A stretch of DNA of 64,000 nucleotides from NCBI GenBank assembly GCA_041910335.1, contig JAYRRF010000024.1, forward strand, positions 18,529 through 82,528, read 5' to 3'. The position numbers and the translations under genes are program-made. A model generated the notes under the pieces. The model saw only the letters and a program-made list of their open reading frames with translations, did not search any database and had not been told where the DNA came from. Numbering within the stretch: position 1 is the first letter of the stretch; every line of letters starts with the position of its first letter. The DNA is from Candidatus Moraniibacteriota bacterium. Lineage in GTDB: Bacteria > Patescibacteriota > Minisyncoccia > Moranbacterales > UBA1568. This document shows, piece after piece, positions 965-47,416 of this stretch.

Positions 965-3553
965 ATGAGCAAGTCAACCAAAAGAGTCAACAAAGATCAG
1001 AACATCAATCCAAGCGAAGAGATTGTGGTTTGTGGTGCCCGGACGCATAACCTCAAAAACATCACTGTTGCTATGCCTCGCAACAAGATGGTGGTGTTCA
1101 CGGGTCTATCTGGTTCTGGTAAGTCATCACTTGCTTTTGATACTATTTTTGCGGAGGGGCAGCGTCGTTACGTCGAGTCTCTCTCAGCTTATGCGAGGCA
1201 GTTTTTGAATACGATGCAGAAGCCTGAGGTGGATGAGATACGCGGCCTCTCTCCAGCGATCTCCATTGACCAAAAGTCAGCGAGTCGCAATCCTCGCTCG
1301 ACAGTGGCGACGGTGACAGAAATTTATGACTACCTACGTGTACTTTTTGCTCGTGTCGGAAAACCACATTGTCTTGAATGTGGTCGAGAGATTGAGAAGC
1401 TCTCAACGGAGGAGATGCTTAACATTGTCCGTGAGAAGATTGCTAAGGCACAAAAGAAGAAAGGGAACGATAAGGTAGGTCTCATTATCACTGCTCCAGT
1501 AGTACGTGGACGCAAGGGAGAATATTATCAGTTACTCTACAATGCTCTTGGAAAAGGATTCAGTGAAATATTTCTTGACGGAGTTCGTAAGAGTTTACGT
1601 GAGCAGGTGTTGTTGTCTAAGAACAAAAAGCATGATATCGACTTTATTGTTGATGAGTTGCCACTCATTGAATTTGAGAAGTTTCCCGAGACATCGGGAG
1701 AGCGTCTTTCTGAGGCAGTGGAGCGAGCATTGGAAGAGAGCGAGGGTTTGGTGCGTATTCATCTTGGCAAAGAAGTGTTCCTTCTTTCTTCAAAGTTTTC
1801 TTGTCCATATGATGGCTTCTCCTATCCAGAAGTAGAGCCTCGACTCTTTTCCTTCAACTCTCCGTACGGAGCTTGTCCTGACTGTAATGGTCTTGGGACC
1901 AAGCATTTCTTTGGTAATGAAGCATGTGACACATGTCACGGATCACGTCTTCGTGAAGAAGCACTTCATATCAAAGTAGGGGGCAAGAACATCGTTGAAC
2001 TGACCGCGATGATGATTGATGCTACGTATGAGTACTTTCAGACACTCGCTCTCTCAGAGAGAGATGTACAGATAGCTTCAGTAGTGCTTCGAGAAATAGA
2101 GAGTCGCTTGAAGTTTTTGTTAAATGTGGGACTTAACTACCTCACTCTTGATCGACGTGCCAATACGCTCTCAGGAGGGGAGGCACAGCGTATTCGTCTA
2201 GCAAGTCAGTTGGGCTCACAGTTAGTGGGGGCTCTTTATGTTCTCGATGAACCGACTATTGGTCTGCATCAGCGTGATAATGAACGCTTGATTGAGACGT
2301 TACAGGCACTTCGCAACCTCGGTAACACCATCATTATTGTTGAGCATGATGAAGATACTATTTATGCTTCCGACTACATTGTTGATATTGGTCCCGGTGC
2401 TGGTGTCCATGGTGGCCAGGTAGTTGTCTCTGGTTATCTTGATGAACTTCTTCTGGCGCCGAAGAATAAGTCAGGCTCTTTGACGCTTGGTTATCTCCGT
2501 AATGAAGAAAGTGTACCGGTACCAAAAGAACGTCGTACCAAGGAAAAGGGTGAATTGAAGATTCGTGGCGGCAAGCTCTTCAATATCAAAAACATGAATG
2601 TAGATGTGCCACTCGGACGCTTCAATGTTATCACGGGTGTCTCTGGTTCAGGGAAGTCGACTCTCATGTATGAGATTATTTATGAAAACTTGAAAAACCG
2701 CTTTGATCGACGCTACAAGTCCAATCGAGTGATGAATTGTACGTCATTCACTGGGACAGAGTACCTTTCTCGAGTAGTGATGATTGATCAGAGTCCTATC
2801 GGGCGGACGCCACGTTCCAATCCAGCGACATACACGGGTATGTGGACACATGTGAGAGATATGTTTGCTTCGACTGAAGAGGCTCGAGTGCGAGGTTGGA
2901 AAGCTGGTCGCTTTTCTTTCAACCGGCCAGGCGGTCGTTGTGAGACATGTGAGGGCAATGGTTTCATAGCAGTTGAGATGCACTTCTTGCCGACTGTGTA
3001 TGTCCCTTGTGATGTTTGTGATGGGAAGCGTTTCACCAAGGAGACGCTCGAAGTGCGCTATAAACATAAGAATATTTACGAAGTACTCGAGATGACCGTC
3101 GAGGAAGCTTTTTCATTTTTTGCCGACATTCCAGCTATTGCTGATCGTTTGAAGACATTGAATGAAGTGGGTCTTGGCTATCTCAAGCTTGGCCAGTCTG
3201 CCACCACTCTTTCTGGTGGTGAGGCTCAGCGAGTCAAAATTTCTTCGGAACTTTACCGTCAGCACGTGGAGCGAACCATTTACCTTCTCGATGAACCAAC
3301 TATCGGACTGCACTATGAGGACGTTAAGAAGTTGATTGAGATTCTCGATCGTCTTGTAGCTAAGGGGAATACACTCTTAGTCATTGAACACAATATGGAT
3401 TTGATCAAATCAGCCGACTATATCATCGATATTGGCCCTGAAGGAGGAGTTGGTGGAGGAGAAGTGGTGGCTACAGGTACTCCAGAAGAAGTAGCGCGGA
3501 AGACCTTTTCGCATACCGGTAAGTACCTCAAGAAAGTGCTTGCAAAGAAGTAG
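965..3553 (+). CDS. uvrA: Excinuclease ABC subunit A paralog (UvrA-like, 862 aa) lacking the insertion domain
   Basis: Tandem ABC ATPase modules: [48 protein letters not shown], a second Walker [11 protein letters not shown] and a second LSGGEAQR. Zn-finger cysteines are present. Only about 10 aa separate CPDCNGLG and CDTCHGSRL, where canonical UvrA has an insertion domain of about 110 aa. The second copy at 44621 has the full insertion domain. Confidence 0.9.
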
Positions 3554-3573
3554 GTGATAAAATACGAAAAATG

Positions 3574-3600
3574 AGAGCTCCAAAAGGGAGCTCTTTGTCT
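3574..3600 (+). terminator. Rho-independent terminator
   Basis: AGAGCTCC-aaaag-GGAGCTCT hairpin followed by TTGTCTTCT. Confidence 0.6.
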
Positions 3601-3706
3601 TCTGGGTAGGAGACAAATAATAGGAGTAAACTCCTTGACAAACTCTATAGACAGTGTATGATTTGAAGGTTTTGGGGAAGGCCTCAGAACATTGGGAGGG
3701 TACTTT

Positions 3707-4132: not shown

Positions 4133-4166
4133 GAACGACGCTACGACAATATAGTTGACTTACAGT

Positions 4167-4708: not shown

Positions 4709-4756
4709 ATAGACCTATTGTACCTGAGTTTGAGACAGAGAACAAAGGGGTGTGGT

Positions 4757-5374
4757 ATGCTGTGGGATATCACTATGTTTGGTACCAAGAAGGCAAAACT
4801 CATAATCGACAAAGAGGTATGGCAACCGACTGGCAGTAAGGAGGATTTAGGTGTGACGTTTCGAAGAAGTAATCAGTCACGTCATATCAAGATATCTATC
4901 GGTGGGGATGGAGACATACTCGTCTCAGCTCCTTTACGGACAGCGAAGTCATTGCTTCGGAAAGTTCTCTTAGAGAAAGAAATCTGGATTATGAGAAGTC
5001 TCAGTCAGTTGCGCGCAACAGGTAAAGTAAGAAATAAAAAAGACGAAGAAGTATCATATCAACGACATAAAGAGCGAGCAAGGAAACTGGTAGAGCAAAA
5101 GCTTGTCTATTGGAACCAGTTCTATAAATATACATACGGTCGGGTCAGTATTCGTAATCAACGGACTCGGTGGGGGAGTTGCTCGCGTAAAGGTAATCTC
5201 AACTTCCACTACAAGATACTGTTTTTACCAGAAGAACTCGTCGATTATCTGATAGTTCATGAACTCTGTCATCTACGCGCTTTCGACCACAGTCAGCGTT
5301 TTTGGGGCTTAGTCTCAAAGACAATCCCTGACTACCAGAAGCGCCGCCGAGCCCTCAAGCAGAGTAGTCTCTGA
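4757..5374 (+). CDS. YgjP/DUF45-family metal-dependent hydrolase (SprT-like, HExxH)
   Basis: RWGSCSRKGNLNFHYKILFLPEELVDYLIVHELCHL motif. ATG at 4757 is preceded by AAAGGGG. Confidence 0.8.
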   Translation: MLWDITMFGTKKAKLIIDKEVWQPTGSKEDLGVTFRRSNQSRHIKISIGGDGDILVSAPLRTAKSLLRKVLLEKEIWIMRSLSQLRATGKVRNKKDEEVSYQRHKERARKLVEQKLVYWNQFYKYTYGRVSIRNQRTRWGSCSRKGNLNFHYKILFLPEELVDYLIVHELCHLRAFDHSQRFWGLVSKTIPDYQKRRRALKQSSL

Positions 5375-5909: not shown

Positions 5910-5920
5910 GGGAAGCTTTC

Positions 5921-7557: not shown

Positions 7558-7977
7558 ATGGTCAAGCAAATATTCATCAATCTAGCCGTCAAGAACCTCG
7601 AGCGATCGGTAGAGTTTTTTGCGGCGCTTGGGTTCAGTTTCAATCCAGATTTTACCGATGAGAAAGCTACTTGCATGATCATGGGAGAGAATATCTTCGC
7701 GATGCTTCTCACAGAAGAGTTCTTTGATACTTTCATCCCGACGACTGAGAGGGTAGATTCCTTGCGTATGACTGAGGTACTTACTGCTATCACTCTCGAG
7801 AGCCGTGAGGCAGTCGATAAAATGGTTGATGTAGCGCTGTCCTTGGGCGCGACTGAGCCACGGCCACCACAAGACTATGGGTGGATGTACTCTCGCTCCT
7901 TTCAGGACTTAGACGGTCATATCTGGGAGCCATTCTACGGGGACGAAGAAGTGAGACAACAACAAGGCGACGAATAA
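7558..7977 (+). CDS. VOC/glyoxalase-family protein
   Basis: FINLAVKNLERSVEFFAALGF ... DLDGHIWEP pattern. Confidence 0.7.
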   Translation: MVKQIFINLAVKNLERSVEFFAALGFSFNPDFTDEKATCMIMGENIFAMLLTEEFFDTFIPTTERVDSLRMTEVLTAITLESREAVDKMVDVALSLGATEPRPPQDYGWMYSRSFQDLDGHIWEPFYGDEEVRQQQGDE

Positions 7978-7980
7978 CCA

Positions 7981-8004
7981 AAAACCGAGGGAAACCTCGG
8001 TTTT
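7981..8004. terminator. Bidirectional intrinsic terminator
   Basis: AAAACCGAGG-gaaa-CCTCGGTTTT, with A/T runs on both sides between convergent genes. Confidence 0.75.
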
Positions 8005-8025
8005 GAATAGGCTTTGCTAGAAGAG

Positions 8026-8238
8026 TTATTTCTTCAAGATTTTTGCCATTAGGATAGCGCCAGGGCAGTAACCAGTTAGCGCAAAGATGCATAACATACC
8101 ACCCACAAAGATATCACCCCAGAGGAACCGAACATCGAGAGTGAGAGTGAGAATAGCAAAAGCTATCACGAGCAATCCGCCGACAAGGTACATAGCACGC
8201 TCTACTGACCAAGTATCAGTATTCATTTTGTAAATCAT
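8026..8238 (-). CDS. DUF2892 (YgaP-like, rhodanese-associated) small membrane protein
   Basis: 70 aa, two TM segments, C-terminal GYCPG motif typical of DUF2892. Confidence 0.6.
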   Translation of the reverse strand: MIYKMNTDTWSVERAMYLVGGLLVIAFAILTLTLDVRFLWGDIFVGGMLCIFALTGYCPGAILMAKILKK

Positions 8239-8254
8239 ACGTCTTTTTTATGAG

Positions 8255-11200
8255 TTATTTTTTATTATCCCACTTCTTTCTCTCAAAAACAAAATAAACA
8301 AGAGGAAAGACAATGAGCGTGAGAAGTGTAGAAGCGGTGAGTCCAAGGATGATAGACCAGGCCAATCCCTCCCAGACAGGGTCACTAACGATAGTGAGTG
8401 ATCCAAGAATGGCCGCGAGTGATGTCAGAACTATAGGGAGAAGACGAATACGTCCAGCTTCTACCAAAGCCTGAACGAGAGGCAAGCCTTTTTGTTTGAG
8501 AGGTTCGAGATACTCCAGATAGATGACCGCGTTCTTGACAGCGAGTCCTGCAAGAGCGATGACACCAATCATAGAAGTGGCATTGAAGTAAGTACCTTTC
8601 AATGCATAGAGAATTGCAAAGCCAGGAAGAACACCGATGAGTGAGAGGGGAATGCTGACCATGATAAGGAGTGGTGTGAAGAGGGACTTTGCTTTAGCAG
8701 CCAATACGAAGTAGATGAGGAATATAGCAAAACCCATAGCAATACCAAGGTCACGAAAAACCTCGAGCGTGAGCTTCCATTCGCCGTCTATTTCGATAGA
8801 GTAGGGTTCACCCGTAGCAGGTACTTGATAGTTAGTACCAAAGAGTGACCAATGATGAAGCTCTGCTTCTCCATTTGGAAAATGATAATTGAGCAAAAGA
8901 GGAAAGAGATCAAGTACAGCATAGATTATGCTACGATTCTCCATTTCCCCAGAAACATAGACAGTCTCTTCACGACCATCGGTAAGGATGGTAGTAGAGG
9001 CGGGGGAGTTATCTTTCGTAAGAATCTCACTAAGAGGTACTTTCGTTCCATCTTGAGCAGAGAGCAGAATCAGAGAAAGGTCGCTTTCTTCGTTGCGAGA
9101 GTTTTGGTCGTATCGAACGATGATGAACTCTTGTTCTTCTTTGGTGATTCCTTCGTGAAGAGTTTGATGATAGAGACCGGCTGATGTACCCGAGAGAGCT
9201 GTTTTGAGAGCGCTGACAGCGTCATGAGGAGTAATTCCAAGGAGTTGAGCCTTTTCTCTGTCTAAATGATATAGGTAATCATAGCCTCGTTCAGGCACAG
9301 AAGTCTTGAGATCGACTATACCGGGAATACTTTGAGATTTGATAGCAAGATCCTGAGCAATTGCTTCAAGAGTTTTGGTATCGGACCCTTTTATCTTGAG
9401 CAGATAGGTAGATTTGACAGGTGGTCCTGGCGGATCTTCCATGAGACGAACATGAGCATCAGGAAAGAGAGTTTGGTACTCTGGCAGAGCATGACGTGTC
9501 TCAGTGGCTATTGCCTCCGAGGTTATAGAACGTTCTTCATGTGGAGTTAGGCGAACCTTGAGAGTAGCTTGCTCAGTACCTTGACGCATGCTGCTACCTT
9601 TGAAGAGGCCGTTGAAGTCAATGATTTGAGAAGTACCAATGAAACTCTCGACACCAGATACCTCAGGCTGTTTCAGTAGCAAATCCTCGAGGCCCTGAGT
9701 AGCAAGAGTTGTTTTGGAAAGAGCGGTACCCTTAGGGAGGTCAAGATAGATATAGAACTGATCCTTATTCGCCTTCGGTAGCATACGAAATGGTACCAAT
9801 GGAGTGAGGGGAAGGATGAGAGAAATAAGTAACACAAAACCAATACCAAGGAGAAATCGTCGACGTTGTCGGTGTACAGCTAGAAGATTGCTGAGGAACT
9901 GTGCATAGCGAGTCTCTATCTTTTGCATGAGACGATAAAAGAAGCCTTGCTCATAGTCGTGATGATTCTGGTTGTCTCCCTTTGCAAGAAAGAGGTGAGC
10001 AAGGTAAGGATTGATTGTTACCGATAGTAAGAGTGACACCAGGAGAGCGGCTGGCACAAAGAAGGGGATCGGTCCCATGTAAGGCCCCATCATACCCGTT
10101 ACGAAAGCCATTGGCAGGAACGCGAGAGCCATAGTGAGAGTGGAGAGAGAAAGTGCGCCACCTACTTCGTTGACCGCTTGGACGATGAGGTGAATTTTAT
10201 TTGGCTCATTTGGATGAAGGCGAAAGTATCGGGCAATGTTTTCTACCACAACGATAGCATCATCTACGAGCAGCCCAAGAGAGAGGATGAGTGCGAAGAG
10301 AGTAATACGATTGACGGTCTGATCAGCCATAAGTCCAAGTCCAAAGACTGCCAAGAGTACAAGTGGGATAGAGATAGAGGCGACAAGAGAGTTGCGGAAA
10401 CCGAGAAAAATATACAACAGTATCCCGACAATGAGGATGGATTTGATAAGGTCAAAAGTCAGCTTGAAGATTTCAGCTCGAGCCGTCTCACCTTCATTAT
10501 TAAGGACATCTAAGTAAGTATTTTGTGGAAGGGTAGATGTGCGAATTTCTTCGAGCTGTTGCTCTACCGCGTCAGTGACAGTAGTGGAGTTAATGCCAGC
10601 GTGTTTTGCGAGGGCGATATGTACAATTTCTTCGCGAGGAGTATCCTTTTCGTGCAACCATACAGAATGAGTAATTTCACCAGGGCCGGCCGTAATCGTA
10701 GCGATATCACCGAGACGAGTAAGGCTTTGTCCTTGGCTTCGGACAATAAGACGAGATAGATCATCAGGATTGGTAATGTTTCCTTCTACAGAGACAAGAG
10801 GGTTGCGGTCTTCCCCGCTGAGGCTGTCGAAAGTATAGATAGTATTGGTGCTCTGAATAGCACGGAGTACTTCGTCAAGGCTGATACCAGTCGCTTTGAG
10901 TTTCTCTCCATTGAGACTGACCTGTAGGTGATTGACAGTGCCACCCTTGATTTCATATGTAGATACACCGGAGACACGTTTGAGTTTCTCAGCTATATCT
11001 TGAGCGAGTTTACGTAGGGAGCTTTGCGAAAGTTCACTAGAACGAACGCCAATATCTATAACAGGTACGTCATCAGGATTGACGGATTGTATCAGCGGAG
11101 TAAGAGCACCCGCTGGTTTGAGATAGCTCTTATCGAGTATTTTTTGGTTGAGTGAAATCTTAGCATCTTCTTGATTCGATCCGACCAAGAACTGTACAGT

Positions 11201-11518
11201 GACTTGGCTGGCACCACCTGGGCTACTAGTCGAAGAAATCTTATCGACGGCAGGTATCTCAGCTACAGTATCTTCGAGTGGTCGCGTCACAAGGTCGTAC
11301 ACCTCTTCAGCTGAGGCGCCAGGAAATTCAGTAGTGATAACAAAGGCCGGCGCTACGATTTCTGGATTGTATTGTTTGGGCATGAGAACAAAAGAAATGA
11401 GTCCCCAGAAACCAAGGATAAGAATACTCAAGAAAGATATTTCTCGATTGGTGAGAAAAAAATGAGTCAGTTTGCCAGCAATGCCAAGAGAGGATTTGGG
11501 AAGAGTAGACATAAGCAC
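8255..11518 (-). CDS. RND-family efflux transporter permease (AcrB/HAE1-like, 1087 aa)
   Basis: 12-TM RND architecture with two large periplasmic loops. The stretch around VFVTGMMGPYMGPIPFFVPAALLVSLLLSVTINPYLA is typical of the family. Confidence 0.9.
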   Translation of the reverse strand: MLMSTLPKSSLGIAGKLTHFFLTNREISFLSILILGFWGLISFVLMPKQYNPEIVAPAFVITTEFPGASAEEVYDLVTRPLEDTVAEIPAVDKISSTSSPGGASQVTVQFLVGSNQEDAKISLNQKILDKSYLKPAGALTPLIQSVNPDDVPVIDIGVRSSELSQSSLRKLAQDIAEKLKRVSGVSTYEIKGGTVNHLQVSLNGEKLKATGISLDEVLRAIQSTNTIYTFDSLSGEDRNPLVSVEGNITNPDDLSRLIVRSQGQSLTRLGDIATITAGPGEITHSVWLHEKDTPREEIVHIALAKHAGINSTTVTDAVEQQLEEIRTSTLPQNTYLDVLNNEGETARAEIFKLTFDLIKSILIVGILLYIFLGFRNSLVASISIPLVLLAVFGLGLMADQTVNRITLFALILSLGLLVDDAIVVVENIARYFRLHPNEPNKIHLIVQAVNEVGGALSLSTLTMALAFLPMAFVTGMMGPYMGPIPFFVPAALLVSLLLSVTINPYLAHLFLAKGDNQNHHDYEQGFFYRLMQKIETRYAQFLSNLLAVHRQRRRFLLGIGFVLLISLILPLTPLVPFRMLPKANKDQFYIYLDLPKGTALSKTTLATQGLEDLLLKQPEVSGVESFIGTSQIIDFNGLFKGSSMRQGTEQATLKVRLTPHEERSITSEAIATETRHALPEYQTLFPDAHVRLMEDPPGPPVKSTYLLKIKGSDTKTLEAIAQDLAIKSQSIPGIVDLKTSVPERGYDYLYHLDREKAQLLGITPHDAVSALKTALSGTSAGLYHQTLHEGITKEEQEFIIVRYDQNSRNEESDLSLILLSAQDGTKVPLSEILTKDNSPASTTILTDGREETVYVSGEMENRSIIYAVLDLFPLLLNYHFPNGEAELHHWSLFGTNYQVPATGEPYSIEIDGEWKLTLEVFRDLGIAMGFAIFLIYFVLAAKAKSLFTPLLIMVSIPLSLIGVLPGFAILYALKGTYFNATSMIGVIALAGLAVKNAVIYLEYLEPLKQKGLPLVQALVEAGRIRLLPIVLTSLAAILGSLTIVSDPVWEGLAWSIILGLTASTLLTLIVFPLVYFVFERKKWDNKK

Positions 11519-12657
11519 TATTCGATATGGACGGAAGCATTGTCATGAAGAGAGTGTTGTCCTTCGATAACGACAATGTCATTAGTAGTAAGGCCATCGA
11601 GTACTTCTCGTTGGTTGCCAATACTTTGGCCAAGAGTAACTTTTTGCATGTGAGCATGATTGTCTTTGACTACGTACACATAGGTGTCATCGTAGACCCA
11701 GAGCAATGCCTTTTCCGGTATCAGAATGTGTTCATCAGCAGTAGGTTCTGTCAGAGTGAGGAGAGCCTGAACGTGGTCACCAATATGCACGTGTTGTCTC
11801 GCTTCTTTTCCGAGAGCAATGCGAATGCCCATTTCTTCAGAGCGCTCCCCGAGAGATTCTGCGATAGATATGATATGCGCAGGCACAGCGTCACCAGCCT
11901 CAGTCTCTAGCGTGATAGTGGTGTCTGAAGTAATAGCAGATCGATAGCTGCGAGGAACAGAGACAAATACCTCTAGCTCTTCGGGTGTGGCGAGTGTATA
12001 CAGGGGAGTGCTTGGTGAAACAAGGTTACCAAGGGAAGCTTGTCTTTCTAAGATGACACCACTGAAAGGAGCCCGCACGATAGTGTTGGCGAGCATAGCA
12101 TTAGCTATCAGTGATTGACTTTGAGTAGCAGCTTCACTAGTGAGTGCCTTTGCGATTTCGGCATCACGTAGACGCTTAGCGCTTATGACGCTTTCTTGGG
12201 CGACATCTACATCATGACTTGTGGCATCACCATTGCGCTTGGAAGCCTTCACTTGGTCAAGTGAAGCCTCTGCCTCAGCTACTTTTTGCTTGAAATAGCG
12301 AGCGGCTTCTTCGGTAGCAGCAGAGTTTTGTTCTGAGACCTGGTCGGCACCTGATGCACCTGCACGGAGTTCGCTTGCTTCAAGGACAGCAAGAACTTCT
12401 CCTTTGTGTACGAAGTCACCCTCGAGCTTAGTAAGACGGACTGTGTAGCCAGCGATACGCGGATAGACCACAGTATGGTTTTTACCTCTGGCAAATCCAG
12501 AAAATGCAATCTTTCGAGAGGCATGGGTGTCGGTAAGAGTAACGGTTTTGACTGGCGTTTCAGATGAAACGGTCATAACCCCTTCTTTTGCTTGAGCATA
12601 GTAATACCCAGCGCTTACGACCAAAAAGAAGATGATCCAAAAAATAGATTTTTTCAT
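11518..12657 (-). CDS. RND efflux membrane-fusion (periplasmic adaptor, HlyD-like) protein
   Basis: N-terminal signal anchor, coiled-coil hairpin (A/E/K-rich) and beta-barrel regions. Its stop overlaps the RND gene start at 11518. Confidence 0.85.
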   Translation of the reverse strand: MKKSIFWIIFFLVVSAGYYYAQAKEGVMTVSSETPVKTVTLTDTHASRKIAFSGFARGKNHTVVYPRIAGYTVRLTKLEGDFVHKGEVLAVLEASELRAGASGADQVSEQNSAATEEAARYFKQKVAEAEASLDQVKASKRNGDATSHDVDVAQESVISAKRLRDAEIAKALTSEAATQSQSLIANAMLANTIVRAPFSGVILERQASLGNLVSPSTPLYTLATPEELEVFVSVPRSYRSAITSDTTITLETEAGDAVPAHIISIAESLGERSEEMGIRIALGKEARQHVHIGDHVQALLTLTEPTADEHILIPEKALLWVYDDTYVYVVKDNHAHMQKVTLGQSIGNQREVLDGLTTNDIVVIEGQHSLHDNASVHIE

Positions 12658-12668
12658 AGAAAATTTTC

Positions 12669-13733
12669 TTAACGATTATGATTTCTCCCCATGCCATTAC
12701 CAGTTTCTTGAGGGGTGTTAAGGATGGCGGTTAGTTCTTCAGCACTTATGTACTGTGCTGCGTATGTCGTACCAGTTTTTTGTTCAAGCTGACGATTGAA
12801 AGCACGGAGATGGTTGCGTGATCCGCGAGTAAGGTTTTCGTACACATTTTGGATATCAGTTTTCTGAGTGCGTCCTAGAGCAGTGTTGATATCACGAATA
12901 TCTAGATCTTCAATAGTAGCACCCACGAGAAGAGCTTGTTCAAGAGATAGTACACCTTGTTTTGTGAGACTTATGTACAGTGCTTGGAGTTCTTGATTCT
13001 GAAAAGTCCCCGGAGTATCTGTAGCGACCGGATCTGGCAGACCGTACTTTTCGAGAAGTGCACCAACGGTGGCCATGTGAGTAGTTTCACTTTGGGAAAT
13101 ATTTTGAAAAATAGGAAGCTTCCACTGGTTGTACAGAGCTCTATACACATCTCTTGCGAGCTTTTCTTCTTCGCGGGTGAAGATAAGATCAGCCTTCTCT
13201 TCTGAAGAAAGGGTATCAGACGTCATAGCTGGTCCGCTTACAATATCAGCAGGAACGAGCATATCAGACTCATTTACGATGTATGTAGATGGATGTAGCC
13301 ACAGAAACCAGGCGAGTCCAGCGATAAAAGCTATTCCTAGCAGAAAGAAGGCAATAGTTTTTTTTGATACGTAAGGAAGAGCCATAGAGTAATGATTATT
13401 AGGAGAAGAAAGTTCACGAAGAGAATCTTGCATTGCTTGCCAGGCGATGAGACCACCAGAGACGTTGATGAGCTCACCGTTGACCCCAAGAGCATGAAGA
13501 GTCTCGATGGCCTTTTCAGAGCGTCTACCGCTCCGGCAATGGACATAGATAGTCTTTTTGTTGCGTAGCTCATCGACATGACCGAAGAGTGCATCGAGGG
13601 GTACATTGCGGACACCAGCAATATGGTGTTCCGCATATTCTTCGGGAGTACAGACATTGATGAAGTCGACCTCGGGAGAGGTGTTACCTTCGTGGAGTGC
13701 CTTCTGGAATTCTTCGACAGTGATGTGTTTCAT
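12669..13733 (-). CDS. Rhodanese-domain protein fused to a TM segment and a DUF2202 (ferritin-like) domain
   Basis: Rhodanese active-site loop IYVHCRSGRRSEKA, then a TM helix, then a C-terminal EEKLARDVYRALYNQW ferritin-like motif. Confidence 0.7.
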   Translation of the reverse strand: MKHITVEEFQKALHEGNTSPEVDFINVCTPEEYAEHHIAGVRNVPLDALFGHVDELRNKKTIYVHCRSGRRSEKAIETLHALGVNGELINVSGGLIAWQAMQDSLRELSSPNNHYSMALPYVSKKTIAFFLLGIAFIAGLAWFLWLHPSTYIVNESDMLVPADIVSGPAMTSDTLSSEEKADLIFTREEEKLARDVYRALYNQWKLPIFQNISQSETTHMATVGALLEKYGLPDPVATDTPGTFQNQELQALYISLTKQGVLSLEQALLVGATIEDLDIRDINTALGRTQKTDIQNVYENLTRGSRNHLRAFNRQLEQKTGTTYAAQYISAEELTAILNTPQETGNGMGRNHNR

Positions 13734-22553: not shown

Positions 22554-22679
22554 AATCAAAACCGACTCCTATCCTAGATGTCCTAGGCACGCACACCATA
22601 CGGTGACAGTTCAGAGCCGGTTTCATTTGTACTGGAATTATAGCATCTGAAGGGTTTTTGTCAAGGTACCAAGAAACGG

Positions 22680-26168: not shown

Positions 26169-29100
26169 TGAATTACGATCAAATCAATCAACAATTAGAG
26201 ACAATACGCAAAACTAAAAACATTGAAGATGTGCAGTCTTTGGTGTGTCTTTTGCTTGAGCCGCTAGGTATTGTAGGATGCAAGCCTGAAGAATTACTTA
26301 ATCATAGCTCGGTACAACGTGAATTTTCTCGTTTCATGCCCGCACAAGGGTTCAGAGATCGAGCTGCTGCTTATACCATCAAACATACGTCGGATTTGCC
26401 GGTAGATATCAAACTCTACTGGATCAAAAAAACCACCAAAGCCAATCTTTCATGGCTCATGGCTCTTACTCCTAATTACGAAGACAACCCAGAGATTAAT
26501 ACCTCTATGAATCTGGGCATCGATATTATAGTTTCAGAGAATTGTGAAAGTATCTATCTGGTACTTTCAAGTATGCTCAAAGTTCGAGTATTGGAGTTAA
26601 ATGGGGTTCTCTCTCATACTCAGAGAGAAATACTTGAGAACTGGCAGAAAATAGGTTCTACTACAGATTCTCAATCAGAGAACTTCAAGCAAGAATTGCA
26701 TAAACTTCTTTGGAAGAGTTTTGACTTTGAGCCGATCAACCGTAAATTCTATCAAGAACTTGTCACACAGTTTGATCATCTAGTCCTTCATCTCAAGCCT
26801 ATAGTTGGGGAGGCATCGGCCAAGATGTTTGCAGTGAGGTTTATCGGAAGAACACTCTTTTTGTGGTTTCTCCGCAAAAAGGATTTTATCAATCCAGAGA
26901 AAGAATACTTCAATGTTTCAGGAAGTGATGATCAGAGTCTTTACTACCATTCCAAGTTAGAATCATTGTTTTTTGAGGTGCTCAACACTGAGGTAAAATC
27001 ACGTAGTTTTGATGATTTTGTGACTCCATTTCTTAATGGAGGGCTATTTGAGCCAATAGAAACAGATTTTTATAGGGATGAGAAGCTGACTTTTCCAGAA
27101 GGATTCTTCACTCAGTTCTTTGATGTCCTTAATCGCTATAATTTCACCGTAGATGAGGGTACTTCTGAGTATGAGCAAGTGGCGGTGGATCCAGAAATGT
27201 TGGGACGAGTATTTGAGAATCTCCTCGCTTCTATCAATGATGAGACAGGCGGGCAGGCCCGTAAGTCTAAAGGAGCTTTTTATACACCTCGTGAGATTGT
27301 GGACTATATGTGCAAGCAGTCTCTCATAGAGTATTTAAAAACAAAGCTTCCAGATACCGCTAATCGAGATCGTCGTATAGAAGAACTTGTCACTATGGAC
27401 GAGGCCACATTTCGTGATCAGGATCACAACAAGCGTCGTGACTGGAAGAAAGATCTTGGTCAAGAGACTGTACTAAAAGCCCTTGATGAATTACGTATCC
27501 TTGATCCGGCAGTTGGGTCGGGCGCTTTTCCTATGGGTATGCTGAATCTCTTGGTCAAGGTCTATACACGTATTGATACTAGCAGAGAGAAAGATCTTGC
27601 TACGCTCAAAAGAGAAATTCTTTCTCGATCGCTCTATGGTGTAGATATAGATCAGATGGCTATACAGATTAGTCGTCTCCGAGCCTGGCTTTCTATTTTG
27701 GTAGATATGGAGAGTCTCAAAAAAATTGATCCGCTGCCAAACCTAGACTTCAAGTTTGTTTGTGCTAATACGTTGATAGCCCTTGATGAAGGGCCAAATA
27801 GTTTATTTGATACTGATATAGAACTCAAAAAACATTTGATAGATCTTAGGGATAAGTACTACGCTGCTACACGTAAGGTAGACAAAGGGAAAATTAGAAA
27901 AGAATATCTATTTTCTATTCAAAAGGGAGGCGAATTATTCGCTTCCAAAAGAGAATTGCAGTTGAGGGATTATAATCCTTTTAATCCTCTTAATTCTACC
28001 AATTTCTATGATCCTGAACTCATGCACGGAGTGGAGAGTTTTGATGTCGTGATAGGTAATCCGCCATACGTGCAGCTTCAAAAGTTTGCCCGTACTCAAA
28101 TTCAGAAAGATTTAGAGAATGAAAAATACCAAACCTTTGCAAAAACAGGAGATTTATACGCTCTCTTTTACGAAAAAGGATTGAATCTTACCAGTCTAGA
28201 TTCAGGTTTGCTCTGTTACATTACGAGCAACAAGTGGATGAGGGCGGGGTATGGCGAAAGTCTTCGTAGATATTTTGTGCAACACAATCCGCTTCTTTTG
28301 CTAGATTTAGGAAGTGGTGTGTTTGAGAGTGCTACGGTAGATAGTAATATTTTATTGATTCAGAATACCTTAAATAAAGGAGAAACAAAGGCAGTCACGA
28401 TTAAGGATAATAAGAAAAGTTTTTCTACTCAGTTGCAAGAACATGGATCAGTGGTAAATTTTGATTCAAGTGGTCCGTGGTTTATTGGTACTCAAGTAGA
28501 GATTAATCTAAAAAATAAAATTGAGACAAATGGAAAACCTCTTAAAGATTGGGATGTTTCAATTAACTATGGTATAAAGACCGGCCTTAATGAAGCTTTT
28601 ATTATTAATCAGGAAAAACGAGATGAGTTGATTGCTCAGGATCTAAAAAGTGAAGAAATTATTAAGCCTATTTTGCGAGGAAGGGATATAAAGAGATATT
28701 CCTACAATTTTTCAGGTCTATATTTGTTAATGACAGGTTTTGATTTTGACATTCCAGTGGAATACCCTGTCGTTTTTAATCATCTGAAGCAGTTTGAAGA
28801 AAAGGCAAAGAAAAGAGATGATCAGGGTAAAAATTGGTGGAATTTGAGAGCATGCGTTTATTATGATGAGTTTGAAAAAGAAAAAATAGTATGGGGAAAT
28901 ATAGCATACAATTCCACTTTTTCAGTGCTAGGTAGTAGCTATTACTTAAATGCTCCTGGAAACCTTATAACTTCTAATTCCACTAGTTTAAAGTTTTTGT
29001 TAGGTTGTTTAAATTCGAAAATATTCAATTGGGAATTCAAAAAAGAAGGTATATTTTTAGGGAATGCTTATGAATGGAAGAAGCAGTATGTAGAACAGAT

Positions 29101-29287
29101 TCACTTGCCATTGAAACAAGATTCACAAAGTATTAAAAAAATTGAGAGTATTGTTGAAAAAATCATATACTTAAAAAAAATAAATCTTGATGCAGACACC
29201 AAAGATCTAGAAGCTCAAATTGATCAGCTTGTTTATCACCTTTATGACCTAACAGAAGATGAAATTAAGATAATTGAAGAATCTTAA
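26168..29287 (+). CDS. Gamma-class N6-adenine DNA methyltransferase with Eco57I/TaqI-like C-terminal target-recognition domain (Type IIG/ISP/PglX-like architecture, no recognisable nuclease domain; 1039 aa)
   Basis: FLNGGLFEP and KGAFYTPREIVDYM N-terminal motifs, motif I ILDPAVGSGAFPMG, motif IV VIGNPPYVQ. TaqI_C-like GIKTGLNEAFII and ILRGRDIKRY. C-terminal LYDLTEDEIKIIE. The start overlaps the upstream stop (TAATG), consistent with translational coupling. Confidence 0.85.
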   Translation: MNYDQINQQLETIRKTKNIEDVQSLVCLLLEPLGIVGCKPEELLNHSSVQREFSRFMPAQGFRDRAAAYTIKHTSDLPVDIKLYWIKKTTKANLSWLMALTPNYEDNPEINTSMNLGIDIIVSENCESIYLVLSSMLKVRVLELNGVLSHTQREILENWQKIGSTTDSQSENFKQELHKLLWKSFDFEPINRKFYQELVTQFDHLVLHLKPIVGEASAKMFAVRFIGRTLFLWFLRKKDFINPEKEYFNVSGSDDQSLYYHSKLESLFFEVLNTEVKSRSFDDFVTPFLNGGLFEPIETDFYRDEKLTFPEGFFTQFFDVLNRYNFTVDEGTSEYEQVAVDPEMLGRVFENLLASINDETGGQARKSKGAFYTPREIVDYMCKQSLIEYLKTKLPDTANRDRRIEELVTMDEATFRDQDHNKRRDWKKDLGQETVLKALDELRILDPAVGSGAFPMGMLNLLVKVYTRIDTSREKDLATLKREILSRSLYGVDIDQMAIQISRLRAWLSILVDMESLKKIDPLPNLDFKFVCANTLIALDEGPNSLFDTDIELKKHLIDLRDKYYAATRKVDKGKIRKEYLFSIQKGGELFASKRELQLRDYNPFNPLNSTNFYDPELMHGVESFDVVIGNPPYVQLQKFARTQIQKDLENEKYQTFAKTGDLYALFYEKGLNLTSLDSGLLCYITSNKWMRAGYGESLRRYFVQHNPLLLLDLGSGVFESATVDSNILLIQNTLNKGETKAVTIKDNKKSFSTQLQEHGSVVNFDSSGPWFIGTQVEINLKNKIETNGKPLKDWDVSINYGIKTGLNEAFIINQEKRDELIAQDLKSEEIIKPILRGRDIKRYSYNFSGLYLLMTGFDFDIPVEYPVVFNHLKQFEEKAKKRDDQGKNWWNLRACVYYDEFEKEKIVWGNIAYNSTFSVLGSSYYLNAPGNLITSNSTSLKFLLGCLNSKIFNWEFKKEGIFLGNAYEWKKQYVEQIHLPLKQDSQSIKKIESIVEKIIYLKKINLDADTKDLEAQIDQLVYHLYDLTEDEIKIIEES

Positions 29288-42529: not shown

Positions 42530-43807
42530 ATGACCGACAAAGAAAAGCTCTGGGAAGAGCTCATCTCTATCACAGATTTTCAGAACAAAAATACGCTGCC
42601 AGAGTATCCGGGAGTATACTTTTTTCTTGATGACAAAAAAGAAGTGCTCTATGTCGGTAAAGCTACCTCACTTCGTGATCGAGTGAAAAGCTATTTCGTC
42701 CAAGATATGCTGGAGACGCGAGGGCCAAAGATAGAGCTGATGATGCCGAAGATTGGCTTCATTGGGTACCGCAAGACGGATTCGGTTCTCGAGGCACTTC
42801 TCTTGGAGTCAGAATTGATCAAAAGTCTGCAGCCGCCTCACAACACTGATGCCAAAGATGACAAAAGTTATAACCAAGTCGTCATTACCAAGGAACTCTT
42901 TCCGCGCGTACTAGTTGTCCGTAGTCGGGATATCGCTCAAGGGAAATTCAGTGATCCTATCAAGTATTCTTTCGGACCATTCCCTGATGGAGGGAGTCTG
43001 CGAGAAGCGATGAAAATCATTCGTCGTCTTTTCCCATTTCGTGATAAATGTGTGCCCTATGAGTCTCTGACAGATACACAGAAGAAAAAAGCACGAGCTT
43101 GTTTTTCTGCTCAGATTGGGCTCTGTCCGGGGGTGTGTACAGGAGCTGTCACAGCTGCAGAATATCAAGAAGGTCTCAAGCACCTCAAGCTTTTCTTTCA
43201 AGGGAAAAAAGGTAGGCTGGTAAAGACTCTCGAAAAAAAGATGATGACATTTGCTCATGAACTTCGTTTCGAAGAAGCAGGAGAGGTAAAGAAACTCTTA
43301 TTTGGACTGCAGCACATACAAGATATTGCTCTCGTCAGACAAGACATTGGTGAGGGTGAGCGGCACCGCATCGAAGCCTATGATGTGGCTCATCTTCAGG
43401 GGAGTGCTTCGGTCGGAGTGATGACGGTTGTTCAGAAGAGTCGAGTTCAACCGAGTGAATATCGACAATTCAAGCTGCGAGCTAAGCACAATGGCAATGA
43501 TCTTTCGGCTTTGGAGGAAATTTTGCGACGACGCTTCACTCATCCTGAGTGGCCCTTTCCCGAACTGATTGTCATTGATGGAGGCGAGACGCATCGCAGA
43601 CAGGCAGAGAAAATTTTACAAGAAATAGACGTGAGTATCCCTGTGCTATCGGTCGTCAAAGATGAGCGTCATCGTCCGAGAGAGGTGCTGGGTCTTATTG
43701 CACTAGCAGAACGTTTCAAGAAAGAAGCTTTGCTTGCCAACAATGAAGCTCATCGTTTTGCTATCACCTTTCACCGCAAACGTAAGCGTCAGGATTTCCT
43801 CTCGTAA
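42530..43807 (+). CDS. uvrC: Excinuclease ABC subunit C, short form (GIY-YIG + UvrBC-interaction + RNase-H-like endonuclease domains; lacks C-terminal HhH)
   Basis: GIY-YIG: YPGVYFFLDDKKEVLYVGKATSLRDRVKSY. UVR domain: LRFEEAGEVKKLLFGLQHI. Length is 425 aa against about 600 for canonical UvrC. Confidence 0.75.
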   Translation: MTDKEKLWEELISITDFQNKNTLPEYPGVYFFLDDKKEVLYVGKATSLRDRVKSYFVQDMLETRGPKIELMMPKIGFIGYRKTDSVLEALLLESELIKSLQPPHNTDAKDDKSYNQVVITKELFPRVLVVRSRDIAQGKFSDPIKYSFGPFPDGGSLREAMKIIRRLFPFRDKCVPYESLTDTQKKKARACFSAQIGLCPGVCTGAVTAAEYQEGLKHLKLFFQGKKGRLVKTLEKKMMTFAHELRFEEAGEVKKLLFGLQHIQDIALVRQDIGEGERHRIEAYDVAHLQGSASVGVMTVVQKSRVQPSEYRQFKLRAKHNGNDLSALEEILRRRFTHPEWPFPELIVIDGGETHRRQAEKILQEIDVSIPVLSVVKDERHRPREVLGLIALAERFKKEALLANNEAHRFAITFHRKRKRQDFLS

Positions 43808-43911
43808 CGGTAGACAAGGGAGTATTGACAAAGGTGCGCTAGAGGAGTAGACCTATAGAGCAACTTCAAAATGAGGGTATTTCGATGTCAGTTTTGCCAT
43901 ACGAACTTACC

Positions 43912-44424
43912 ATGATTGCTGCCTACATGGGTGCGCGGCGCATCATTGGTTACCAGGGAGAAATGCCTTGGAGTATTGAAACGGAGACGCAGTTTTTTCG
44001 CGAAACGACGCGAGGTTCTATCGTCATTATGGGACGTGTGACGTGGGAGTCTATCCTACGGCGGAATGGTCACCGGCTTCTTGGTCGCACCAATCTTGTT
44101 CTCAGTCGAAATGATCAGGACGGCGGCGGCTATGTTCCAGTTTTTTCGGTCGAAGATGCTCTTCGAGTGGTCGAACAACTTCGGCATGAAAATCAGAAGG
44201 TTTTCGTCATTGGTGGCGAACAGGTCTATAAGGCTTTTCTGCCATACGCCTCTCGACTGCTTATTTCAAGAATCGTGCATCGACGAGGAACTTTGCCTCA
44301 ACATGCTGATGCATTCTTTCCTTGCTTCAACAAGAAGGAGTTCCCGATTCACCGAAGAATTCGTTCCGGACAGGATGGGAGATACAGAATCGTTTTTGAA
44401 GAGCGAAAGCGGGTCAGTCGCTAA
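43912..44424 (+). CDS. folA: Dihydrofolate reductase
   Basis: MIAAYMGARRIIGYQGEMPW...VIMGRVTWESI...VFVIGGEQVYKAFLPYASRLLISRI aligns with the E. coli FolA pattern. Confidence 0.8.
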   Translation: MIAAYMGARRIIGYQGEMPWSIETETQFFRETTRGSIVIMGRVTWESILRRNGHRLLGRTNLVLSRNDQDGGGYVPVFSVEDALRVVEQLRHENQKVFVIGGEQVYKAFLPYASRLLISRIVHRRGTLPQHADAFFPCFNKKEFPIHRRIRSGQDGRYRIVFEERKRVSR

Positions 44425-44451
44425 GTCACCAAAAGTGGAGATATAAGCGAG

Positions 44452-44494
44452 GAGGGGTCTATCGTGCAGTGTCACGGTGGACCCCTCTCTCTTT
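44452..44494 (+). terminator. Hairpin terminator
   Basis: GAGGGGTC-(20 nt)-GACCCCTC followed by TCTCTTT. Confidence 0.5.
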
Positions 44495-44620
44495 ACAGCA
44501 TGTGAAAAATCATGTATCCTGAGAGACATCTTATTTAAGTGAAAAGTAAAAATGCAAAGCTAAAAATGACTTGCCTTTATACTCTTTCCATTTTGATGTT
44601 TTCATTTTGAATTTCAGAAT

Positions 44621-47416
44621 ATGGCAGATAAAAAAACAGTCATTGAAGTGCGAGGCGCACGAGTGAATAACCTGAAGAATATCGATGTTGATATTCCGCG
44701 CGACGCATTGGTGGTCGTCACCGGTCTTTCTGGTTCGGGCAAATCATCACTGGCTTTTGATACTCTTTTTGCGGAAGCGAATCGACGCTATGTCGAGTCG
44801 CTTTCTTCATATGCACGTAATTTTCTTGATGGTTTTGAGAAACCGGATGTAGACACTATTCACAATCTTTCTCCAGCTATCTCTATTGATCAGAAGAGTG
44901 TTTCTCGTAGTCCGCGTTCTACTGTAGGCACGATGACGGAAGTCTATGATTACCTTCGTGTACTCTACGCCAAACTCGGTGAGCCACATTGTCCAAATTG
45001 TAGTGCGAAATTGAGTCGTCGAAGTGTTCGAGAGATTCTTGAGGAGATTCTGTTGTTACCGAATGACACCGCTCTAGTGTTTACTACGGAGAGTTTTGCT
45101 TTGCGTGGCAAGAATGAAAAAGATGCTCTGCAGATGATTCAGACCTGGGGGTATCCTCGAGTGATGAAGGACGGTGAAGTTCTTGGAATTGCTGAAGCAG
45201 CGATGACTGCCAAGGGAGATCAAGAACACCGCTATGAGCTCGTGATTGATCGTATGACACTCAACACGGCTCGTCCTGATAAGGAGCGTATCATCGACAA
45301 CCTTCAGACAGGTTTTCAGTTAGGTCATGGGACGCAAGCGGTAATCATTGGAGAAGACGGTGAGAAGCGTCACTACAATGAAGAATATCGTTGTGACAGT
45401 TGTGATATCTATCTCCCAGAGTTTTCACCGAGCCATTTTTCTTTCAATAATCCAGAAGGGGCTTGTCAGAAGTGTTCGGGTCTTGGCGTGACCCTTGCCT
45501 TTGATCCAGAACTGATTATTCCTAATAAGAATCTTTCTTTTCTTGAAGGAGCTGTACGGCCATGGAGCAAGATGAATAGTGGTCGTGAGAACGGACATGG
45601 GCCTCTCGCTCAGCTTTTGGATGCCTTGAAGCGTCTTCGTATTGGAGCAAGCACTCCAGTCAAAAAACTCTCCAAGAAACAGCTTGATATTATTTTCTTC
45701 GGTGAGGAGAAAGAGGGTGGCTTTGAGGGAATTATTTCTCTTTTGGAGCGTAAGTACAAAGAGACGAAATCAGAACATCTGCGAGGCGATATCGAAGCTT
45801 ACATGCATACGCAGGTATGTGATAGTTGTCAGGGTAAGCGACTCAAGAAGGAGTCTCTCTCAGTGTTGCTTCAGGGGCTGTCAATCGATGATATTGCTTG
45901 TCAAAGTATCGATAAGTTATTGATCACATTACCTACACTGGAAAAGAAGCTTGTCACCAACAAGGAAAACAAGGCATTCGTAGAGCCCCTTTTTCGTGAG
46001 ATGTTCACTCGTTTACGTGCAGTAGAGAAGGTCGGCCTAGGTTACTTGGAGATACGTCGTGGAGCTCACACGCTTTCTGGTGGAGAGGCTCAGCGTATCC
46101 GTCTTTCTGTGCAAATGAAGTCAGGTCTCTCAGGTATCATCTATGTCCTGGACGAACCCTCAGTTGGGCTTCATAGTCGTGATACTGAGAAACTCTTAGG
46201 GGCTCTCGAGGATTTACGTGGTGCCAATAACTCTCTGGTAGTCGTAGAGCATGATGTAGCTATCATGAAACGAGCTGATTATATTATCGATATGGGGCCT
46301 GGAGCAGGGAGTGAGGGAGGCGAAGTCATTTTTGCTGGGACACCTTCTGCACTCCTCAAATCAAAGATGCTCACTGCGGAGTACCTCAATGGTAAACGCA
46401 GCGTCTCCGAGAAGAAGAAGCTTCGCAAGGGGACTGGTAAGAGTCTTTCTATTATCGGTGCGAAAGAACACAATCTTCAGAACGTTGATGTGAGCATTCC
46501 TCTCGGTATGTTGGTCTCAGTAGTAGGAGTGTCTGGATCGGGTAAGTCATCCCTTGTCCACAGTATTCTTTCAAAAGCTCTCTCGAAACACTTCTACCAT
46601 GCCAAGGCAGAGCCAGGCGCTCACAAGAAAATCACCGGCTTAGAGAACATCGATAAAGTCATCACTGTCAATCAAGATCCAATTGGACGAACACCTCGCA
46701 GTAACGCAGCGACCTACACAGGAGTCTTTGGTCTTATTCGCGATGTTTTTGCAGCGACGCCTGATGCAGAGAAAGAGAAATTCAGCGCTAGTCACTTCAG
46801 TTTCAATATGCGTGGTGGACGCTGTGAAGAGTGTCAGGGAGGGGGAATGAAGAAAATAGAGATGTATCTCTTACCCGATGTATATGTACCTTGTGAGTAT
46901 TGCCAGGGCACTCGCTACAACCAGAAAACGCTTTCCATTGAGTACCGAGGGGTAAACATTTCTCAAATTCTCCAAATGACCGTGACAGAAGCGAGAAGAT
47001 TTTTCCTTGATCAACCAATGATTGAGGAGAAGCTCCGCGTGCTTGAAGAGGTGGGCCTTGGCTATCTTGTCTTGGGTCAGAGCGCTACCAATCTCTCCGG
47101 AGGTGAAGCTCAGCGTATCAAGCTCGCTACTGAATTGGCGCGTAAGTCTACTGGAAAGACTCTTTATATTCTCGATGAGCCGACTATCGGACTGCACTTC
47201 GAAGATGTGAGAAGACTCCTTGAAGTATTAGATGTTCTTGTAGACAAGGGGAATAGCGTCTTGGTAGTAGAGCATAATATCGATGTCGTCAAAGCATCAG
47301 ACTGGGTGATAGAGCTTGGGCCAGACGGTGGACAGGCTGGAGGAGAGCTGGTGTTTTCTGGTACACCTACGAAACTGAAGGCTGTTAAGAAAAGCTTCAC
47401 CGCTAAATACCTCTAG
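44621..47416 (+). CDS. uvrA: Excinuclease ABC subunit A (canonical, 931 aa, with insertion domain)
   Basis: [34 protein letters not shown], two LSGGEAQRI signatures, and a full insertion domain of about 110 aa between CQKCSGLG and CDSCQGKRL. Confidence 0.95.

Follow-up and report, generated by a model that had tools for sequence, protein, structure and literature searches.

A natural UvrA without the insertion domain, a short UvrC and a divergent second UvrA in Candidatus Moraniibacteriota

The characterised class I UvrA proteins of nucleotide excision repair (NER), among them those of E. coli, G. stearothermophilus (2R6F/3UWX), T. maritima (3PIH) and M. tuberculosis (3ZQJ), join their ABC modules, zinc modules and UvrB-binding domain to an insertion domain (ID; Pfam PF17755, UvrA_DNA-bind). 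In a 2025 structural model the IDs clamp and melt the DNA, flip a base and are displaced upon UvrB binding; earlier mutant studies were split on whether the domain is dispensable. Class II proteins, such as D. radiodurans UvrA2 (2VF7), Ecm16 (7SH1) and DrrC, have neither the UvrB-binding domain nor zinc module 1, and carry an ID that they need for DNA binding. Here we describe the reverse arrangement on a stretch of 64,000 nucleotides (nt) from a Candidatus Moraniibacteriota bacterium (assembly GCA_041910335.1, contig JAYRRF010000024.1, positions 18,529 to 82,528 of the forward strand; hereafter the window). Two UvrA paralogs are encoded there. The first, copy 1, is a UvrA intact in its two ATPase modules, its three zinc modules and its UvrB-binding domain, from which the ID has been cleanly lost; the second, copy 2, is a divergent protein that has an ID. 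A short uvrC gene lies on the same stretch.

Our literature search, outside which most subscription papers lay, recovered engineered ID deletions alone, with no natural ID-less UvrA and no paper on NER in the candidate phyla radiation (CPR). The natural form, widespread in this uncultivated radiation, is apparently undescribed. It retains the UvrB-binding domain, purifying selection has conserved it in at least 120 species, and its gene is usually flanked by uvrB and a short uvrC. Either NER works in these organisms without both accessory DNA-binding domains, or another solution, for instance a second UvrA, has been adopted, and the choice bears on damage discrimination and on the hand-off to UvrB. 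Annotation is affected too: pipelines call both paralogs "UvrA", and some of the short UvrCs "GIY-YIG nuclease family protein".

An intact UvrA that has lost its insertion domain

Copy 1 and its landmarks are as follows; all coordinates are positions in the window, and the evidence is given in brackets.

965..3553, + strand: uvrA copy 1, encoding the ID-less UvrA of 862 aa (open reading frame, Pfam, NF001503, AlphaFold2 model)
1370..1813, + strand: zinc module 1 (CLEC ... CPYD) around the UvrB-binding domain (PF17760, E. coli alignment)
1874..1951, + strand: zinc module 2 and the deletion junction, residues 304-329 (alignments, cysteine spacing)
2876..3034, + strand: signature-II DNA-binding patch and zinc module 3 with its hairpin, all canonical (E. 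coli alignment, residue conservation in the family)

An initial annotation, made from the letters of the window, had called the open reading frames (ORFs) of two UvrA paralogs (965..3553, 862 aa; 44621..47416, 931 aa) and of uvrC (425 aa). All three are exact, and both of the longer ones are confirmed as UvrA. It had also proposed that copy 1 keeps the ABC modules, the zinc ligands and the UvrB-binding region and has about 10 residues where the ID is expected, a description that domain searches, alignments and conserved residues bear out. PF17760, the UvrB-interaction domain, is found at residues 170-266, and a Pfam scan of the 862-aa protein gives no match to PF17755. The curated UvrA equivalog model NF001503 recognises copy 1 above its cut-off with 1246 bits, the match being split in two around profile positions ~300-400, which it leaves out; copy 2 scores lower, at 1189 bits. 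Aligned with Geobacillus UvrA (2r6f), copy 1 covers chain residues 22-303 and 417-957. In the E. coli UvrA alignment ~residues 290-402 have no counterpart, which is nearly the stretch, 290-400, that was deleted by design in the E. coli mutant of Manelyte et al. (PMC3025350). Nine linker residues, TKHFFGNEA, stand in place of the ~113-residue ID, and all four cysteines of zinc module 2 are retained around the junction. The possibility that an ID is present but diverged was considered and is ruled out, merely 9 residues lying between the two cysteine pairs of this module.

The rest of the protein is that of a regular UvrA. R216 and E222 of the UvrB-binding domain (E. coli numbering, used throughout for conserved residues) are present in the alignment. 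The AlphaFold2 model has a pLDDT of 83 and a pTM of 0.74, and its best match in the PDB is 3uwx_A, the UvrA of a UvrA-UvrB complex (TMq 0.88). Identity to E. coli UvrA is 54% for copy 1 and 46% for copy 2, the two copies being 42-46% identical to each other. By sequence and by predicted fold, copy 1 has what would be needed for ATP-driven dimerisation, for DNA binding through the signature-II patch and zinc module 3, and for UvrB binding.

Across the ID-less family (n=203) K37, K646, both Walker B motifs, both H-loops, R216, G502, the arginines R712, R722, R724 and R730 and the zinc ligands are conserved, G502 being Gly in 100% of the members and the signature-II arginines and G502 together standing at 95-100%. 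K37, K646, D513/E514, D857/E858, H546 and H890 reach 98-100% in both UvrA families, in which the cysteines of zinc modules 2 and 3 are likewise invariant; the ligands of zinc module 1 are C-C-C-D in the copy 1 family (Asp replaces C256 in 100%) and C-C-C-C in copy 2. With class I proteins copy 1 shares the ABC modules, the zinc modules and the UvrB-binding domain, as well as the signature-II arginine patch, the hairpin of zinc module 3 and, in relatives, the uvrB/uvrC neighbourhood. It differs from them in having no ID, an Asp as fourth ligand of zinc module 1 and small family-specific insertions. From the ID deletions engineered in E. coli and G. stearothermophilus it differs in being natural, fixed in at least 120 species and provided with a conserved 9-residue linker. 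A resemblance to class II exists insofar as copy 1 coexists with another UvrA and has lost one accessory domain. However, it carries PF17760, the domain that class II proteins lack, and the initial annotation was right to keep it apart from that class. Copy 2 is excluded from class II as well by the UvrB-binding domain and the zinc module 1 ligands that it has kept.

We also noted that the ID-less family has insertions relative to both E. coli UvrA and copy 2 at copy 1 residues ~148-172 and ~495-503 (~1406..1480 and 2447..2473). A Lys-rich segment within the UvrB-binding domain of this family is variable, reading KKKG in copy 1 and KKVMGV in other lineages, and a conserved insertion, (T)AK(T)N.SG, is found near E. 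coli residue 587.

The ID-less form is not confined to this contig. The best 120 homolog clusters of copy 1 (820-996 aa, most of them ~850-875; 77-92% identical to it) are all without PF17755; the assemblies behind them are independent of one another and bear the names Moranbacteria, Moraniibacteriota or Patescibacteria. In 120/120 of them the cysteine-to-cysteine spacing across the junction is 17 residues, and the linker GLGTKHFFG is invariant; the corresponding spacing in copy 2-type proteins is 118-126. A degenerate DNA pattern for GLGTKHFFG has matches in at least 120 GTDB species genomes. The species labels among the listed matches comprise Moraniibacteriota, Lloyd-, Nomura-, Vogel-, Campbell- and Yonathbacteria, Paceibacterota and Parcubacteria; a few labels from third-party annotation (TPA) assemblies ("Saccharibacteria", "Bdellovibrionales") seem unreliable. 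From GTDB loci, 83 complete orthologs could be extracted, with 63-92% identity to copy 1. The ID-less UvrA is thus spread over the Paceibacteria/Parcubacteria, in at least 120 GTDB species, and the pattern search undercounts it, since one stand-alone ID-less UvrA (P0472, 57-60% identity) has a different linker. The junction, identical throughout the 120 clusters and at least 120 GTDB species, rules out an assembly deletion or a pseudogene. The initial annotation had itself raised a diverged ID and an assembly deletion as ways in which its proposal might fail; the alignments and the junction shared by relatives speak against both.

ID-less modules occur in another setting, that of the tandem UvrAs. 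A search of 1.84 billion representatives for stand-alone ID-less families returned mostly tandem proteins among its best 150 matches, P0472 being the one stand-alone protein seen. Copies 1 and 2 are single-module genes, which distinguishes them from the Chlamydia-type tandem UvrA (NF001885, ~1800 aa): they score 613 and 607 with this model, against a cut-off of 3054. Many tandem UvrAs nevertheless join an ID-less module that has the UvrB-interaction domain to an ID-bearing one, as if copy 2 and copy 1 were placed in one chain. In P0362 the spacing in zinc module 2 is 126 in the first half and 17 in the second, and the Planctomycetota proteins P0379 and P0380 have the same order of an ID-bearing module followed by an ID-less one. 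Identity of the ID-less halves to copy 1 is ~40-45%, and their linkers differ from that of copy 1, so that the losses in tandem proteins and in copy 1 were probably independent; the tandem proteins that we found score below the NF001885 cut-off. Altogether, dozens of 50%-identity clusters of tandem UvrAs of 1600-2300 aa were seen (within P0361-P0510), many with an ID-bearing N-terminal and an ID-less C-terminal half. Some of these proteins, P0379 and P0397 among them, come from metagenome-assembled genomes (MAGs) of Planctomycetota, and in several of the tandem proteins the second module begins without a consensus Walker A.

A divergent ID-bearing paralog and a short UvrC

Copy 2 lies 41 kb from copy 1 as a separate gene. 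Its features are these:

44621..47416, + strand: uvrA copy 2, a divergent paralog of 931 aa with the full architecture (ORF, PF17760 and PF17755)
45464..45844, + strand: zinc module 2 around the ID of copy 2 (PF17755, residues 295-392)
46106..46135, + strand: region with Lys at the position of E. coli G502 (residue counts in the family)
46760..46807, + strand: altered signature-II patch with R722E, R724E and R730H (E. coli alignment, residue counts in the family)

Copy 2 had been described as canonical. That holds for its domain content, with PF17760 and PF17755 both found (the latter with E = 3e-19, at residues 295-392), but not for its sequence, which besides the lower identity to E. coli UvrA has G502 and three arginines replaced, nor for its position, as it is not the neighbour of uvrB. 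Its ID is ~16 residues shorter than that of E. coli UvrA, the gap falling opposite E. coli NIEFKYMNDRGDTSIRRHP. From this alignment, we interpret the missing residues as the beta-hairpin of the M. tuberculosis UvrA ID, an element reported as conserved except in Thermotoga and Aquifex (PMC11985968). Copy 2-type sequences (n=120) retain the ATPase residues, the zinc residues and R216; E222 is Glu in copy 1 and Gln in copy 2. In the same 120 sequences G502 is changed to Lys in 97%, R722 to Glu in 71%, R724 to Glu in 80% and R730 to His or Tyr in 94%, and of the four arginines R712 alone is kept. In E. coli UvrA, G502D causes a loss of damage discrimination, and the quadruple mutant R712A R722A R724A R730A is dead for both global NER and transcription-coupled repair (TCR) (PMC3025350).

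The two families also differ in pace. When orthologs carried as pairs on one contig are compared, the ID-less protein is always the better conserved, at 73-83% against 65-74% for the copy 2-type protein, a difference of 8-11 percentage points. Neighbour-joining (NJ) trees were built from 817 trimmed columns with 200 bootstraps; they are distance trees with long branches. The ID-less family and the copy 2 family were each recovered in 200/200 replicates and their joint monophyly in 0/200, from which it follows that copy 1 and copy 2 are not recent duplicates. P0472 joins the ID-less family in 200/200. The copy 2 family is joined by the UvrA of locus L159 in 200/200 and then, in 141/200, by ID-bearing UvrAs, two of which (L164 and L165) are annotated as Patescibacteria MAG proteins. 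In a metagenome scan copy 2-type proteins formed a discrete group at 64% identity or more, the next class reaching at most 57%.

Gene order points to the same protein as the mainstream one. Context was counted in 8-kb GTDB loci (n=120), many of them incomplete at their ends: uvrB lies directly upstream of the ID-less uvrA in 52/120, and the short uvrC directly downstream in 55/120. A Moranbacteria MAG (L005) has the order uvrB, ydjC, ID-less uvrA, a 93-aa gene, short uvrC, ID-bearing uvrA, a 307-aa gene and pilC, and metagenome loci from the Joint Genome Institute show this order too. In L005 and in L001 the ID-bearing uvrA directly follows uvrC; in the window a dihydrofolate reductase (DHFR) gene stands between them, and uvrB was not found in its 64,000 nt. 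Copy 2-type genes adjoining uvrC were seen in Moranbacteria-type loci alone, and more than 10 non-Moranbacteria loci with over 2 kb beyond uvrC contain no gene of this type. Sequence, gene neighbourhood and conserved residues all single out copy 1 as the orthodox NER UvrA of the lineage and copy 2 as a long-branch extra paralog. On these grounds the roles that the initial annotation gave to the paralogs should be swapped: copy 1 would be the mainstream protein that has lost a domain, and copy 2 the divergent one.

The uvrC gene and the gene that separates it from copy 2 are placed as follows:

42530..43807, + strand: short uvrC, 425 aa, with GIY-YIG, putative UVR and RNase-H-like nuclease domains (Pfam, E. 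coli alignment)
43885..44424, + strand: dihydrofolate reductase gene between uvrC and copy 2 (PF00186)

The short UvrC has the GIY-YIG domain (PF01541, residues 27-102) and the RNase-H-like domain (PF08459, E = 2e-31). A putative UVR motif (PF02151, residues 229-260) scores 18.0 bits, slightly under the cut-off of 21.5, and is detected in many homologs. The equivalents of E. coli R42, E76, D399, D438, D466 and H538 are invariant, and the protein passes the TIGR00194 cut-off. Relative to E. coli UvrC it is without ~residues 245-390, a stretch of about 140 residues that separates the UVR motif from the RNase-H domain, and without everything past ~550, including the C-terminal tandem helix-hairpin-helix region, (HhH)2, so that it ends ~10 residues beyond the motif equivalent to H538. 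The absence of (HhH)2 had been pointed out in the initial annotation, and the missing inter-domain residues are to be added to it. No HhH Pfam family is found in the 425-aa protein or in its 120 best homologs (395-495 aa), nor is there a split-off HhH gene downstream, where DHFR comes next. Complete uvrC genes that adjoin an ID-less uvrA (n=43) encode 397-458 aa and end right after EAHRFAI..HRK. In sequence terms the short UvrC is a lineage-wide form that has kept both nuclease active sites. Its two nucleases, GIY-YIG (3') and RNase-H-like (5'), and its putative UVR motif are features of the UvrC of E. coli and T. maritima, whose (HhH)2 it lacks. From Cho, which corresponds to the N-terminal half of UvrC alone, it differs by its RNase-H-like domain (with the Cho model NF007833 it scores 58 bits, the cut-off being 367). 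The (HhH)2 region is missing more widely than the UvrA ID, because one locus (L160) pairs a 399-aa UvrC devoid of HhH (7872..9071, - strand of that locus) with a canonical ID-bearing UvrA whose arginine patch is intact (9962..12784, + strand). This UvrA groups with UvrAs annotated as Patescibacteria proteins.

Possible roles of the two UvrA paralogs

We think it rather probable, from the sequences and by analogy with engineered mutants, that copy 1 is the working NER UvrA of its lineage, acting without an ID and with the short UvrC as its partner, and that copy 2 represents a separate accessory lineage. An ancestor of a large part of the Paceibacteria would have lost the ~113-residue ID in one clean event, leaving behind the 9-residue loop that would close zinc module 2. 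The copy 1 homodimer would then bind DNA through the groove of signature II and zinc module 3 alone and load UvrB, which, to go by the engineered ID deletions, would carry most of the damage verification. With the short UvrC beside copy 1, the UvrABC set of these small genomes would be a streamlined one. Copy 2 would be a faster-evolving UvrA line that Moranbacteria-type genomes have retained and whose relatives are the ID-bearing UvrAs of other Patescibacteria; it would probably be co-expressed with a 305-aa gene downstream of it (see below). Because its signature-II patch is reversed in charge and G502 is changed, it would serve as an accessory sensor and not as the main one, whether alone or as a partner of copy 1.

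That copy 1 could function without an ID is suggested by the engineered deletions, which still support incision. With E. coli UvrA that lacks residues 290-400, incision was normal on an adducted duplex of 50 bp and slower on a UV-damaged plasmid; this protein showed poorer damage discrimination and a bias towards Mfd-dependent repair (PMC3025350). Several observations weigh on the other side. In recent cryo-electron microscopy (cryo-EM) work the IDs are central to the clamping and melting of DNA and to the hand-off to UvrB (PMC11985968), and Ecm16 deprived of its ID cannot bind DNA (PMC10192343). On account of these two results, and again by analogy, the ID-less homodimer may be a poor sensor on its own. 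The NJ trees, with their long branches, do not settle which paralog is the vertically inherited one or where either came from. (HhH)2 is needed for 5' incision in E. coli UvrC, which makes dual incision by the short UvrC uncertain.

One could envision, on the other hand, that copy 1 and copy 2 form an obligate or preferred asymmetric heterodimer, copy 1 supplying the arginine patch and copy 2 a single ID as the "recognition" protomer. The losses are indeed complementary, copy 1 having R722, R724 and R730 and no ID, and copy 2 having an ID and E, E and H at these positions; both copies keep the UvrB-binding domain, and their genes lie within one cluster in relatives. The tandem fusions of an ID-bearing to an ID-less module would lend a Rosetta-stone type of support to dimers with one ID, and the cryo-EM model already separates a recognition-ID from a support-ID (PMC11985968). 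However, the arginine patches are not cleanly complementary in the 7 tandem proteins in which both zinc modules 3 were detected, the two genes are far apart in this window, and many Paceibacteria loci have the ID-less gene and no copy 2 after uvrC, where the ID-less protein probably functions alone. We consider such a heterodimer unlikely. The wider scenario built on it, in which a CPR branch has a minimal UvrABC (no ID, no (HhH)2) and the Moranbacteria add a charge-reversed ID-bearing UvrA, paired as an obligately asymmetric sensor, is likewise put forward as a doubtful one. If true, it would constitute a natural separation of "recognition" and "support" protomers, of which the tandem UvrAs of Planctomycetota and others, with an ID-bearing and an ID-less half, would be the fused equivalent.

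A division of labour, with copy 2 as the global-genome sensor and copy 1 as a loader of UvrB at damage that is already marked, for example in Mfd-dependent TCR, would account for the full domain set of copy 2. It would also fit the behaviour of ID-less E. coli UvrA, which favours Mfd-dependent template-strand repair and performs less global repair on plasmids (PMC3025350). A sensor of this kind is difficult to reconcile with the loss from copy 2 of residues that E. coli UvrA, as its mutants show, needs for DNA binding or for damage discrimination, with an ID devoid of the beta-hairpin, and with the faster evolution of the family, which was seen in Moranbacteria-type genomes alone; moreover, the neighbour of uvrB across the group is the ID-less gene. 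We therefore regard it as quite improbable. A tblastn search with E. coli Mfd matched three unrelated bacterial loci and no Patescibacteria locus; the loci are short, and the result is hence uninformative. As to whether copy 1 might be no repair UvrA at all, being instead a decaying pseudogene, an assembly deletion or a non-NER protein resembling class II, one can invoke the absence of a domain that all characterised class I UvrAs have and the destruction of Ecm16 DNA binding upon ID removal (PMC10192343). Yet the ORF is intact and its junction recurs unchanged in species, protein clusters and assemblies that are independent of one another; the protein exceeds the curated equivalog cut-off by more than copy 2 does, and its catalytic and UvrB-interface residues are all conserved. 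Its gene is embedded between uvrB and uvrC in relatives, and it possesses the very UvrB-binding domain that class II proteins are without. This explanation is hardly credible. The reading of copy 1 as the working UvrA, with copy 2 as an accessory, is the one that we retain.

Upstream region and other genes of the window

The region before copy 1 and the gene after copy 2 are located at:

883..956, + strand: upstream region of copy 1 (sequence reading)
47434..48351, + strand: conserved gene of 305 aa, 17 nt after copy 2 (conserved position in relatives)

The initial annotation had predicted a leaderless mRNA for copy 1, a proposal that finds little to sustain it. A terminator-like hairpin of the preceding gene (883-918) is followed by TTGAAT (928-933), a 17-nt spacer and TGcTAGAGT (948-956); an in-frame stop occupies 956-958, and the -10-like element ends 8 nt before the ATG at 965. 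A consensus promoter scan made no call at this site, which is an 8/12 match, and the arrangement is not conserved: the L005 ortholog has a TGgTATACT element 22 nt from its ATG. Nor is the missing Shine-Dalgarno (SD) motif specific to copy 1. SD-like motifs precede very few of the 54 listed ORF starts of the window, and their near absence makes the lack of one at copy 1 uninformative. Initiation in this genome may often be leaderless or SD-independent. Several genes of the window have TAnnnT ~7 nt before the ATG, for example those starting at 21909 and 37882.

A gene corresponding to the 305-aa one directly follows every copy 2-type uvrA with enough flanking sequence, in 31 metagenome loci as well as L001, L002 and L005, and it is also found behind the more canonical sister UvrAs of L159 and L172/L173. 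From this positional conservation it is likely an operon partner of copy 2. The protein has no match to a Pfam or NCBIfam family, and its single-sequence AlphaFold2 model (pLDDT 36) is unusable. A profile of its homologs gives a weak PDB match to MNT minimal nucleotidyltransferase (E = 8e-4) and contains an invariant G...S-D-x-D motif; it may have a Pol-beta-type nucleotidyltransferase fold.

Some other genes of the window are worth recording. About 1.2 kb downstream of copy 1 lies a gene for a YgjP-like/SprT-like metallopeptidase (4718..5374, + strand), and a metallopeptidase gene of a homologous family (3686..4243 in L005) is found a few kb upstream of uvrB in that locus. SprT/WLM-type proteases act on DNA-protein crosslinks in other organisms, and by analogy a link of this gene to repair is conceivable. 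An AcrB-family RND transporter of 1087 aa and an HlyD-type membrane-fusion protein of 379 aa are encoded at 8255..12657 (- strand); Patescibacteria are generally regarded as lacking an outer membrane. A 214-aa ORF (21909..22553, + strand) was judged DUF3800-like by eye from FIDDSGDPGF, and the Rfam DUF3800-IX RNA is detected right after it on the opposite strand (22555..22623, - strand; 65 bits, E = 6e-12). Next to it, at 22743..29287 (+ strand), two overlapping genes encode a fusion of a phospholipase D (PLD)-type nuclease with an SNF2 helicase (1141 aa) and an Eco57I/MmeI-like N6-adenine methyltransferase with a TaqI-like specificity domain (1039 aa), a pair that looks like a restriction-modification or defence module.

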